Positions 31,729-34,176 of a stretch of 46,343 nt of DNA are shown here, in pieces; the first letter of the stretch is position 1, and every line of letters starts with the position of its first letter. The position numbers and the translations under genes were made by a program. The DNA is taken from the UHGV virus genome UHGV-0181016; one strand, written 5' to 3'. The DNA comes from a virus. Below the pieces are notes generated by a model. That model was not told the origin of the DNA. It was given only the letters and a program-made list of their open reading frames with translations, and searched no databases.

Positions 31729-31768
31729 CCTGAATTTGACTGATGTTGATTATATCATCTCAGTGGTG

Positions 31769-31797
31769 TTGACACCTGTTAGGTGGTGATGTAGATT
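31769..31797 (+). promoter_or_regulatory. family promoter, TTGACA-N17-TAGATT
   Basis: The sequence reads gtgTTGACAcctgttaggtggtgatgTAGATT. Confidence 0.55.
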
Positions 31798-32510: not shown

Positions 32511-33227
32511 TCAGGATACGGTGCAAGCCGTACTGATAATAATTTCAGGGTCAGTAGATGAATCCGTTACCGTGACGGTGTATACGCCAGCTGTGGGGCT
32601 TGCCAGTGATGCGCCAGACTCACCACCAACAACCGCGCCATCTTTGCGCCACACGTAGGTGTATGGTGCAACGCCACCTTCAACAGCAACGATTAACGGG
32701 CTGCCAGCCGTGCCAGTTGATGGCAGGTCGGTAGTGAATGCCAGAGGTTCAAGGCTTTCAACGGTAACACTGTCAGAATCATAAACCTTGAACTCAAGGC
32801 TGCCAGTCACGATGTCGTTCGTGCCACCTTCGTAGCTGATGCTGGTGATGTTGCAGTACGCGGTAACGATAGTTGCACCAGTCACCTGACGCACCCACAA
32901 GGAAGGCTGGCGACGCGCTTTCAGTTCAGTGGCGTAAATCTCAACCAGACGATGGAAGCCAAACTCATCACTTGGGTCATTTTTGCGGATTTCCACCTCT
33001 GCACTGATGGTCATATCAGAGCTGGTAACGAGAGTGGAAACAAATCCACCAGCGGTATCAGCTTCCGACGTAGTGGTCTGCGGCGAGTAGTCAACGCCTT
33101 TACTGGTGGTTGAGCCTAAATATTTCCAGTCACCTGCATCAGGGACTGCGTCACCGCACCCTTCAGCAAGGAACAGTCGGGTCATGCGACCGACAAGAAC
33201 GCCTTTATCATTTGCACAAATAGCCAT
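32511..33227 (-). CDS. major tail protein with a C-terminal Ig-like domain (lambda V-like)
   Basis: The N-terminal region resembles the major tail family. The C-terminus has Big_2-like repeats such as GSPLIVAVEGGVAPYTYVW. Confidence 0.65.
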   Translation of the reverse strand: MAICANDKGVLVGRMTRLFLAEGCGDAVPDAGDWKYLGSTTSKGVDYSPQTTTSEADTAGGFVSTLVTSSDMTISAEVEIRKNDPSDEFGFHRLVEIYATELKARRQPSLWVRQVTGATIVTAYCNITSISYEGGTNDIVTGSLEFKVYDSDSVTVESLEPLAFTTDLPSTGTAGSPLIVAVEGGVAPYTYVWRKDGAVVGGESGASLASPTAGVYTVTVTDSSTDPEIIISTACTVS

Positions 33228-33278
33228 TTCGATCTCCGAATTGTGTTAGCTGCTAACGTGGTGATTATATCACAGGTG

Positions 33279-33307
33279 TTGACAGTGATTATTTTGTGGT
33301 GTAGATT
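33279..33307 (+). promoter_or_regulatory. family promoter, TTGACA-N17-TAGATT, driving a non-coding RNA and tRNA unit
   Basis: The sequence reads caggtgTTGACAgtgattattttgtggtgTAGATT. Confidence 0.55.
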
Positions 33308-33319
33308 TGGATTTAACAG

Positions 33320-33696
33320 AGATTGGCTCCATGATTTCATTTAATTACAGCCACTCCTTCAATTAAAATTAGCGGTCGAGAGACGCCGGACGCGTAACCG
33401 GCACACAACAGGTAAGAGTATTGGCGCATATCAGTGGAACTCGAACCCATTGTGCAGGCGACACAGACGTGTGTTTCAGTGCTCTTTCCGTTGTGGTGGA
33501 TGCGTAGACTGATACGCTATAAAAATGCGGCGAATCCAGTACGTAAACTCGTGCCGTTTCGCACCTAATCCGGAGATCAGTACCGGCCACACAACACTTA
33601 ATATCCAGCATTATCGCAATCATATGTAGGGGTATGTATGGGTTACGGCGCTGGATGTTAAGAAAGCACGCTGGCAATGCTTAAACCAGCACTTAT
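33320..33696 (+). ncRNA. structured non-coding leader upstream of tRNA-Met. It has multiple hairpins and direct repeats.
   Basis: There is no plausible ORF. Hairpins include GCCGGacgcgtaaCCGGC, ACACAgacgTGTGT, GTGCcgtttcGCAC and CCAGC...GCTGG. The repeat CCGGC(C)ACACAACA occurs twice. Confidence 0.3.
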
Positions 33697-33773
33697 GGAC
33701 GCGTAGCTTAAGTGGTTAAAGCAACCGACTCATAATCGGCTGATTGAAGGTTCAAATCCGTCCGCGTCCACCA
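33697..33773 (+). tRNA. tRNA-Met (anticodon CAT) with an encoded CCA. There is one mismatch in the anticodon stem and one in the T stem.
   Basis: Manual cloverleaf gives acceptor GGACGCG/CGCGTCC, D-arm GCTT-AAGTGGTTA-AAGC, anticodon loop CTCATAA and T-loop TTCAAAT. A downstream terminator hairpin follows. Confidence 0.55.
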
Positions 33774-33775
33774 TA

Positions 33776-33805
33776 TTAAAAGCCGCATGAAGCGGCTTTA
33801 TTTAT
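33776..33805. terminator. terminator
   Basis: Hairpin AAAGCCGC-atga-AGCGGCTTT is followed by ATTTATTT. Confidence 0.55.
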
Positions 33806-34176
33806 TTCACAACCCGCAAAAGCAACTCATGCGCAGGTCTTTTCTCTTCCGTTAACATCGGCCTACCGAGCGGCGCTTGCAACTGGATGTAGTTAACGCA
33901 TGAATCAATCGGATGTGTCTTGATGTATTCGATAATCTCATTGGCTTTAGAATCAACGTCCTGAACATTGTACTGGCCTTGCTTCCCAACAACGTACAGC
34001 GAGAAATAGAAATCACCACCGAGTCCATCCATAACCTGCGTGCCGCCATTGGATTGCAGAACAATAAATTGCTCGTTGCCATCTCCGGTGTCACTCCAGA
34101 ACTGCAACTGCGAAGTCCAGCCATTATACAATCCGGCATCCTGAAGATATGCATCAACCAGCTCAAGCATATTCAT
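33802..34176 (-). CDS. tail terminator / tail completion protein (gpU/DUF3168-like position)
   Basis: Size and order only. It lies immediately upstream of the major tail gene. Confidence 0.4.
   Translation of the reverse strand: MNMLELVDAYLQDAGLYNGWTSQLQFWSDTGDGNEQFIVLQSNGGTQVMDGLGGDFYFSLYVVGKQGQYNVQDVDSKANEIIEYIKTHPIDSCVNYIQLQAPLGRPMLTEEKRPAHELLLRVVK

Follow-up and report, generated by a model that had tools for sequence, protein, structure and literature searches.

A probable plus-strand noncoding RNA unit of exchangeable modules beside the major tail gene of a Skate-like siphophage

The noncoding gap and its features

UHGV-0181016 is a viral genome of 46,343 nucleotides (nt), analysed here at its full length as the window, and it comes from a Salmonella-type siphophage grouped with Skate, seszw and 64795_sal3 (Skatevirus and its allies). 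Between the gene of the major tail protein and the preceding tail gene of 124 amino acids (aa), both on the minus strand, lies a gap that we read, with a probability of about 0.7, as an independent plus-strand noncoding unit (an "RNA moron"), in which a promoter is followed by about 380 nt of structured RNA modules, a transfer RNA (tRNA) and a terminator, and whose transcript would be processed. The leader strings together modules that are each conserved on their own and are exchanged horizontally, namely the 5' hairpins, E1, M2, E2 and E3. The initial annotation of this stretch had proposed a plus-strand unit together with a tRNA-like element on the minus strand; the plus-strand half is right and the locus is richer than was described, and the minus-strand half fails. 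The features, in the coordinates of the window, are as follows.

32511-33227, minus strand: major tail protein gene (PHROG 853, E = 5.5e-87)
33264-33272 (read from 33272 to 33264), minus strand: extended -10 motif TGATATAAT, about 37 nt upstream of the major tail ATG
33279-33307, plus strand: sigma-70-type promoter TTGACA-17-TAGATT, from a motif search, predicted to drive the noncoding unit
33375-33410, plus strand: leader hairpins GUC-GAGA-GAC and CCGG-ACGCGUAA-CCGG, then CACACAACA (repeats D1 and D2)
33404-33497, plus strand: E1, a scaffold stem enclosing a three-way junction
33490-33597, plus strand: M2, a cloverleaf-shaped module with closing stem GUUGUGGUGG paired with CCACACAAC
33597-33662, plus strand: E2, a long irregular hairpin (inverted repeat I2)
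33665-33690, plus strand: E3, AGCA-C-GCUGG-CAA-UGCU-UAAA-CCAGC, just upstream of the tRNA
33697-33773, plus strand: tRNA with anticodon CAT (33731-33733) and encoded CCA (tRNA-Met by ARAGORN; Rfam RF00005 61.8 bits, threshold 29)
33779-33806, plus strand: intrinsic terminator AAAGCCGC-ATGAA-GCGGCTTT with a T-run (hairpin 33779-33799)
33802-34176, minus strand: 124-aa gene across the gap from the major tail gene

Boundaries and coding content

A promoter of a recurring family had been proposed at 33279-33307, pointing into about 380 nt free of open reading frames (ORFs) and ending in a tRNA and a terminator, and this arrangement is supported. The TTGACA-17-TAGATT site was found at the expected place, and the term family promoter holds because a second copy lies at 31769-31797 on the plus strand, giving two in the window against 0.28 expected. 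The block 33228-33307 is 96-100% identical among Skate-like relatives, even where the downstream leader differs. The terminator hairpin likewise stands directly after the tRNA; on the minus strand it is followed by TTTTAATAT and also reads as a weak minus-strand terminator.

The leader is free of recognisable coding sequence, as had been claimed. The longest plus-strand ORF in the gap has 44 aa; a minus-strand ORF of 102 aa starting with TTG occupies 33369-33677, and relatives carry unrelated sequence in the segments that it spans. No PHROG family matched either ORF at E <= 0.01, and a protein-coding account of the gap was rejected. In the genome of Skate (locus L001, 2992-3506), three small minus-strand genes for hypothetical proteins, CPT_Skate_053 to 055, are annotated over noncoding modules and are probably spurious.

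The leader folds with z = -4.2 on the plus strand versus -2.4 for its complement, and covariation is seen in three modules. The earlier suggestion that it acts as an RNA thus gains support, and the leader itself is probably a functional RNA. A search with the covariance models of Rfam 15 gave no match within 33328-33691 at E <= 10, and the same search of 13 related loci (E <= 1) gave tRNA matches and sub-threshold matches only.

E1, a three-way-junction RNA in a conserved scaffold

E1 is composed of the following plus-strand elements.

33404-33423 with 33477-33496: P1, the scaffold stem, about 20 base pairs (bp)
33424-33428 with 33451-33455: P2, 5 bp
33429-33450: loop of 22 nt, with an invariant 16-nt core AGUGGAACUCGAACCC (33433-33448)
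33456-33459: J2/3, AGNC; the next base, the invariant G57, opens P3
33460-33465 with 33470-33475: P3, 6 bp, usually with a GACG tetraloop

The scaffold is conserved in sequence as well as in pairing and reads CACAAC-A-GG(U/A)AAGAGCAUUG ... CAGUGCUCUUUCC-GUUGUGG. Sensitive blastn showed that 33420-33485 of the window is about 87% identical to stretches in CR3 and CR8 (Cronobacter phages, rV5-like) and in the N4-like phages S5, PhAPEC5 and PhAPEC7, and E1 was assigned to Skate-like siphophages, to the N4-like S5, L008 and PhAPEC5, and to CR3/CR8. Model R1 separated true E1 copies in all three groups (88-109 bits) from matches to the scaffold only (20-30 bits), each of the latter being strongest on the strand of the local tRNAs. 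Metagenome contigs yielded one further true E1 only, and a 15-mer search of genome contigs gave nothing beyond unspecific chance matches.

Seven distinct sequences entered the E1 alignment (A1), and across them 92.9% of cells pair and 13 of 24 pairs show compensatory changes, a result matched by none of 500 shuffles, with slid controls reaching at most 52%. RNAalifold recovered P1, P2 and P3, and 15 of its 30 predicted pairs are compensatory. One pair of the scaffold, 10-84, about 10 bp from the junction, is unpaired in all seven sequences.

E1 belongs to the plus strand, a conclusion decided by folding energy, wobble pairs and the direction of promoter, terminator and tRNA taken together. The fold has z = -4.03 on the plus strand versus -0.42 on the minus strand. 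On the plus strand 156 of 168 cells pair, 15 of them as wobbles, against 147 of 168 with 6 wobbles on the minus strand; six of the seven sequences have U18.G76 as a wobble. As to context, E1 of CR8 occupies the 85-nt gap between tRNA-Gln and tRNA-His and has the orientation of both, and in PhAPEC5 a co-oriented tRNA follows E1 at a distance of about 350 nt.

The E1 copies of CR8 (L004, 1489-1573) and CR3 (L007, 3737-3818) each take up a place in a tRNA array that has the size of a tRNA and carries no annotation; in the long stem, the CCA end of tRNA-Gln is base-paired to the opening nucleotides of tRNA-His. The E1 loop complements GGGUUCGAGU, a common T-arm sequence of tRNAs; pairing of the loop with mature tRNAs would be speculative.

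M2, a degenerate tRNA-shaped module

M2 begins exactly at the end of the E1 scaffold, and its 9-bp terminal stem (GUUGUGGUG/CACCACAAC) reuses the GUUGUG strand of that scaffold. Two hairpins flank a centre that varies from 20 to 150 nt among homologues.

33502-33517, plus strand: M2 5' hairpin GCGUA-GACUGA-UACGC
33570-33586, plus strand: M2 3' hairpin CCGG-AGAUCAGUA-CCGG (homologue consensus CCGG-AGAUCAGYA-CCGG)

The minimum free energy (MFE) structure of M2 is a four-way cloverleaf (z = -2.14). Across eight homologues, pairing in the three outer helices reaches 98.6%, compensatory changes affect 7 of 18 pairs and none of 500 shuffles does as well; the 5' hairpin, for instance, becomes GCGCA/UGCGC in HC8A, GCACA/UGUGC in pEC881_2 and GUGCA/UGCA in KpnBU9. 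Cloverleaf, terminal stem and covarying helices are thus all present in M2; T-loop and D-loop motifs are absent from it, and RF00005 matches only the real tRNA of the window. The Rfam tRNA model gives 37.4 bits (threshold 29) to the module that holds the M2 slot in the Pantoea phage PdC23. We regard M2 as a degenerate tRNA-shaped module.

The sequence GGAYGCGTA, which forms the 5' end of the tRNA, occurs in three copies (33388-33396, 33498-33506 and 33697-33705). The start of M2 (33494-33504) is 91% complementary over 11 nt to the 3' acceptor end of the tRNA (33763-33773); the MFE structure of the whole transcript pairs the two, and the complementarity is lost in HC8A. It may be chance, or a relic of the descent of M2 from a tRNA.

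E2 and E3, the constant part

The last two modules of the leader precede the tRNA, and E2 shows two distinct parts.

33597-33609 with 33650-33662, plus strand: outer 13-bp stem of E2
33629-33632, plus strand: GGGG loop of the conserved E2 apex AUGUAGGGGUAUGUA

E2 and E3 together fold with z = -3.0. The stem variants of E2, inspected by eye, give U.G, C-G and U-A, which pair on the plus strand only, and E3, nearly invariant among Skate-like relatives, can be drawn from its sequence as a possible H-type pseudoknot. None of the 11 Skate-like relatives examined lacks either module. In vB_CECAV_048 and Sa179lw, E3 is followed directly by the terminator and there is no tRNA; two other Skate-like relatives carry tRNA-Ser and tRNA-Arg in place of the tRNA of the window. 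Because E2 and E3 are kept in relatives with no tRNA or a different one, they are the constant part of the unit in the Skate-like group, and the tRNA is an optional, exchangeable cargo. Outside that group, E2 precedes a tRNA in the N4-like PhAPEC5, and E3 lies upstream of E1 in the N4-like S5 and L008.

Mosaic structure of the leader among relatives

Alignment of the gap across relatives revealed a mosaic. The closest phage record for the leader, Salmonella phage gmqsjt-1, covers 78% of it at 95% identity. The 5' hairpin module recurs in Solent and KpnBU9 with CUGG/CCAG in place of CCGG/CCGG (by eye), and other Skate-like phages hold wholly different inserts within the same scaffold. A host origin of the leader was not found, its E. 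coli matches being prophage or plasmid copies of the scaffold/M2 junction only.

A mosaic of this kind might be neutral debris, in which decayed tRNA genes and recombination scars have accumulated in a hypervariable hot spot and the tRNA alone is functional. The swapping of modules among relatives would agree with this, as would the fact that no deposited phage matches at least 80% of the leader at high identity and that tRNA-like remnants are common (the tRNA-model match of the PdC23 module, and pseudo-tRNAs with T-arm and CCA in PhAPEC5). Compensatory changes, however, keep the helices of E1 and M2 across distant phage groups, the 16-nt loop core stays invariant though the surrounding stems change, E2 and E3 are retained in relatives that lost the tRNA, and identical inserts occur in unrelated phages, the insert of Skate and PSH-1 being identical in the Klebsiella phage LASTA. 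We therefore consider debris unlikely and keep to a functional noncoding RNA unit.

The CRISPR-reduced mutants of seszw (MZ375295-MZ375351) keep the locus in every mutant listed, down to a genome of 36.5 kilobases (kb); the paper on that genome reduction never uses the words "tRNA", "intergenic" or "non-coding". Retention could reflect importance of the locus or merely experimental design.

Distribution of the scaffold and its inserts

The scaffold is far more widespread than E1. An exact 19-mer of its 3' strand occurs in at least 120 IMG/VR contigs, and at least 154 scaffold instances were collected, carrying at least 111 distinct inserts in at least 64 clusters. Among the matches listed, insert length has a median of 50 nt and a range of 34-175 nt; further inserts are found in Akira, HC8A, sal3 and PdC23. 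Within 1.5 kb of the scaffold all 49 tRNAs among the IMG/VR matches listed are co-oriented with it, 100 of 125 instances listed have no nearby tRNA, and M2 of the window's type follows the scaffold in 54 of 125 IMG/VR instances listed.

In bacterial genomes, the segment 33475-33519 (the 3' half of the scaffold and the start of M2) has matches in 272 of 5426 complete E. coli genomes, chromosomes and plasmids included, and in plasmid pEC881_2 a tRNA cluster adjoins the match. In many prophages the unit lies between the antiterminator Q gene (PF06530) and the lysozyme/Rz genes. In prophage locus L235, which was read base by base, it follows a promoter and a terminator resembling PR-prime and tR-prime and so sits in the late-operon leader, as the scaffold often does in lambdoid prophages. 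No conserved protein partner was found by the scaffold, its neighbours being ordinary late-region or structural genes (Q, lysozyme, Rz, terminase, portal).

A T-arm-like hairpin is present on the plus strand in 8 of the 64 insert types among the matches listed, and on the minus strand in E1 only. This single case explains what the initial annotation had noticed on the minus strand, and it suggests, from sequence resemblance, that E1 descends from an inverted tRNA-like insert.

Near-identical arms of about 20 nt, inverted around at least 64 unrelated insert types, point to exchange at the arms, and together with the resemblance of E1 to a flipped T-arm-bearing insert they raise the question of a DNA-level element, in which the arms serve as inverted repeats for cassette exchange or inversion in the manner of attC sites or invertases. 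The wobble asymmetry nevertheless favours one transcribed strand, orientation to tRNAs is strict (49 of 49 among the matches listed), each locus studied closely starts at a promoter-like site and ends in a terminator hairpin, and no recombinase is a regular neighbour. Nor, to our knowledge, do the arms follow the attC core consensus, and with no linked recombinase the idea of an integron attC-like or invertible segment was rejected. A DNA-level element in general appears quite improbable, and recombination at the arms could in any case coexist with the RNA function preferred here.

Several related arrangements were seen. A shared module, CCAGACGAUAUCUGAG...AAAAACAGAUGG plus a hairpin, occurs in a Skate-like contig (L197), PhAPEC5 (L009) and the Klebsiella phages SopranoGao and KpnBU9 (L200, L203). 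BUCT554 (L201, 150-870) and an E. coli prophage (L194, 2100-2930) carry noncoding loci of about 700-800 nt that follow the same grammar from promoter-like site to terminator hairpin; a second scaffold variant, CACAACAUGAAAGCGCAC...GUGCGCUUCCAGGUGUG, opens both, and the conserved blocks GGCACAUGYGYCG and GGUAGCCGGAAUGUGCAAG lie within them.

The tRNA and the tmRNA call

The tRNA at 33697-33773, its CAT anticodon and its encoded CCA were all confirmed by ARAGORN and Rfam; the earlier label tRNA-Met is probably wrong. Near-identical tRNAs of relatives (L001, L186, L189, L009) have the anticodon CAT, AAT or TAT, and the IMG/VR loci with the E2 core (L323-L375) have, among the matches listed, CAT in nine, AAT in eight and TAT in one. 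ATA makes up 19.8% of the isoleucine codons in the long ORFs of the window. Because of this polymorphism and codon usage, the tRNA is probably an isoleucine tRNA of the AUA type. The anticodon polymorphism is itself odd.

ARAGORN also called a transfer-messenger RNA (tmRNA) over 33388-33773. A phage tmRNA-like gene would account for the predicted 32-aa tag, and matches to the tmRNA_permuted model of 27-29 bits occur in the alternative leaders of Akira, HC8A, Bas81, PhAPEC5 and S5. Those scores fall below the gathering score of 47, and within the window no Rfam tmRNA family matched at E <= 10. The call depends on a 9-nt copy of the tRNA 5' end: the loop in the 33375-33410 hairpins contains a copy of GGACGCGTA, which is the source of the misleading prediction. 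The tag is unusually long and has an atypical ending, and the 3' domain is a complete tRNA with A3-U70, as read from the sequence, rather than G3.U70. Alanine charging requires a G3.U70 acceptor pair. The call was rejected as an artefact of the repeated tRNA 5' end, and we give a tmRNA-like gene almost no credence beside a noncoding leader with an ordinary tRNA.

The tmRNA_permuted matches in relatives lie at L190 436-576, L189 and L191 468-577, L009 775-936 and L005 1830-1918, and are independent. PhAPEC5 (L009, 1270-1700) also carries several unannotated plus-strand tRNA-like pseudogenes whose T-arms are good; ACCA follows two of these, and ARAGORN calls none.

Minus-strand transcription and the proposed tRNA-like element

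The motif TGATATAAT has six copies in the window where 1.8 would be expected, a count reached in none of 100 shuffles, and its copy at 33272 to 33264 is likely, as judged from the motif and its position, to be the own promoter of the major tail gene. It stands back to back with the plus-strand promoter at 33279-33307, which suggests that the noncoding unit and the major tail gene may compete for RNA polymerase through overlapping divergent promoters. Promoter pairs were found at both sites where plus-strand cassettes break up the tail genes, and the tail cluster therefore looks split into separately promoted pieces. The second pair consists of TGATATAAT at 31757 to 31749 on the minus strand and TTGACA-17-TAGATT at 31769-31797 on the plus strand, and marks the point at which the run of tail genes is broken by a plus-strand gene cassette; the corresponding cassette of Skate includes a superinfection immunity gene.

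The initial annotation had further described a minus-strand element within the leader.

33421-33517 (read from 33517 to 33421), minus strand: proposed tRNA-like element, not a real feature

It was proposed that a tRNA-like structure, with a 9-bp acceptor stem, a T-arm and a templated CCA, lies within the late tail mRNA and serves as a signal to RNase P or RNase E, by which cistrons are separated or the stoichiometry of the major tail protein is set. The letters are indeed present, about 10 nt away from the stated position of 33412-33506, and the tetraloop hairpin ACACA-GACG-TGTGT exists as described. The minus strand reads UGGG-UUCGAGU-UCCA, which fits the T-loop consensus, followed by G-CCA, and E1 is alone among 64 insert types in having such a hairpin on that strand. 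A 10-nt inverted repeat (I4, 33426-33435 / 33508-33517) corresponds to the closing stem.

Conservation of this closing stem was not observed. Its pairing is kept in none of seven other E1-bearing sequences, where the best downstream complement in any register reaches 6-8 of 10. The element folds at chance level (MFE -25.8 kcal/mol, z = -1.01, with 29 of 200 shuffles as good), and neither ARAGORN nor the Rfam tRNA model (E <= 10) found anything on the minus strand. Its closing stem joins pieces of two separate plus-strand modules: the 5' acceptor strand (the complement of 33509-33517) is the 3' half of the M2 hairpin GCGUA-GACUGA-UACGC, which covaries independently, and the T-arm with the 3' acceptor strand is the reverse complement of the P2 strand and invariant loop of E1. 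The tRNA-like reading thus arose because the invariant loop of E1 is the reverse complement of a T-arm-like sequence.

Context speaks in the same direction, since the co-orientation of E1 with tRNAs in CR8 and PhAPEC5 would make the minus strand there antisense to the tRNA array. In the window, the minus strand is bracketed by the upstream terminator-like hairpin and the downstream likely promoter of the major tail gene, so that the premise of a continuous late tail mRNA across the region is, from these motifs, doubtful. The element was rejected as a tRNA-like structure on the grounds of fold, tRNA models, conservation and the ownership of its 5' strand by M2; a role in tail-mRNA processing or major-tail stoichiometry found no support. 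We regard this explanation as highly improbable and as largely refuted already by the comparative data, and return to the plus-strand unit.

Proposed processing of the transcript and weighing of the evidence

By analogy with established tRNA and rRNA processing, the primary transcript of the plus-strand unit would be cut by the tRNA-processing machinery of the host. RNase P would cut at the 5' end of the tRNA (33697) and so free the leader, and might also recognise M2, which would place a cut at the end of the E1 scaffold (near 33490). RNase III would cut the stems of about 20 bp, as it does with the stems around 16S and 23S rRNA in rRNA operons; the predicted scaffold stem has 19-21 bp in the seven E1 sequences and in other cassettes, in keeping with the helix of at least about 20 bp expected of an RNase III substrate. 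E1 and other modules would then be released as stable small RNAs, and the invariant, probably single-stranded 16-nt loop core of E1 would be the working surface for an RNA or protein partner.

Several points weigh against this reading. Every cleavage step is inferred from analogy. The alignments are small (seven E1 and eight M2 sequences), and the helices were first seen by eye in the sequences later tested, which favours them over the slid controls. The strand asymmetry of E1 is modest when taken alone (92.9% versus 87.5% of cells paired). Most Skate-like relatives have a different insert instead of E1, which is therefore dispensable for this phage type. A partner of the E1 loop was not found: the window contains no complement, and blastn of E. 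coli genomes with a 37-mer gave no match to the loop, a method blind to seeds of 10-13 nt. The E3 pseudoknot is without covariation support, and the M2 of the window is not recognised by the Rfam tRNA model (E <= 10).

Comparison with known systems

No description of these modules was found in literature searches, some of which used the motif sequences; a 2026 preprint on the Pas small RNA concerns different RNAs. The resemblances described below are functional analogies only.

The T4 stable RNAs species 1 and 2 (rnaC, rnaD) are, like the modules here, small and structured and, by annotation, adjoin and are co-oriented with phage tRNA genes, and the rnaC stretch has GGGTTCGAATCCC near its 3' end, which we read as T-arm-like and comparable to M2-type modules. 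However, model R1 finds nothing in the T4 region, which lacks a stem scaffold with variable inserts, and no homology was found. GOLLD and ROOL are likewise structured noncoding RNAs of phages and prophages and often adjoin tRNA genes. Each of them has one large conserved fold, whereas the present locus is a chain of short exchangeable modules in phages of enterobacterial hosts, and neither has an Rfam match in the window (E <= 10) or in the 13 related loci (E <= 1).

The scaffold resembles the stems cut by RNase III in rRNA operons and T7 early mRNA; these are imperfect helices of about 20 bp flanking a structured RNA, and the conserved internal mismatch about 10 bp from the E1 junction may be compared with theirs. 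It differs in that its sequence is far more conserved than RNase III requires and that some copies pair at the mismatch.

tRNA-like punctuation is known from MALAT1-mascRNA, the tRNA-miRNA units of the gammaherpesvirus MHV68 and mitochondrial tRNAs. As with M2 and E1, a tRNA-shaped module adjoins a hairpin RNA, so that tRNA-processing enzymes could release the neighbour. These systems are eukaryotic or viral-eukaryotic, and the M2 of the window differs in lacking T-loop and D-loop motifs and a tRNA-model match. Punctuation of this kind is plausible for M2 on the plus strand rather than for the minus-strand element.

The C4 antisense RNA of P1 and P7 and the CI RNA of P4 are cut by RNase P from longer transcripts, and their loops set specificity. 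They offer a precedent for phage RNAs with variable loops; unlike C4 and its targets, the E1 loop has no complement in the phage window, and no Rfam C4 match was obtained. Bacterial Y RNAs such as YrlA of Salmonella combine a long stem of the 5' and 3' ends with a tRNA-like module. Here no Rfam Y RNA or YrlA match was found (E <= 10) and the Ro-binding helix sequence is absent. Membership in the Y RNA, C4, GOLLD and ROOL families was accordingly rejected, as no covariance model matched.

Conclusions

The comparison removes a false lead, that of a minus-strand tRNA-like signal in the tail mRNA, and directs attention to the plus strand. Here a constant part, E2 and E3, outlasts the tRNA; siphoviruses, podoviruses and myoviruses share a 16-nt loop core without variation; and a stem of conserved sequence holds dozens of unrelated inserts, an unusual architecture for a bacterial RNA. 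In current annotation, such phage gaps either carry nothing or are populated by small spurious ORFs, Skate genes 053-055 being an example.

As a tentative extension, which we think more apt to prove wrong than right, scaffold and M2 might form a hitherto undescribed display and processing platform for horizontally traded RNA cassettes of about 50 nt (at least 64 types) in enterobacterial phages, prophage late-operon leaders and phage-plasmids, with the cassettes acting as RNA effectors in an arms race. If this were true, the cassettes would be decoys or inhibitors of host defence or of tRNA-targeting nucleases, or weapons between phages, freed by tRNA-processing enzymes. If the modules work as RNAs, many enterobacterial phages carry an unnamed class of accessory RNA genes, and the carriers would include therapeutic candidates, BASEL phages, Stx-type lambdoid prophages and phage-plasmids.

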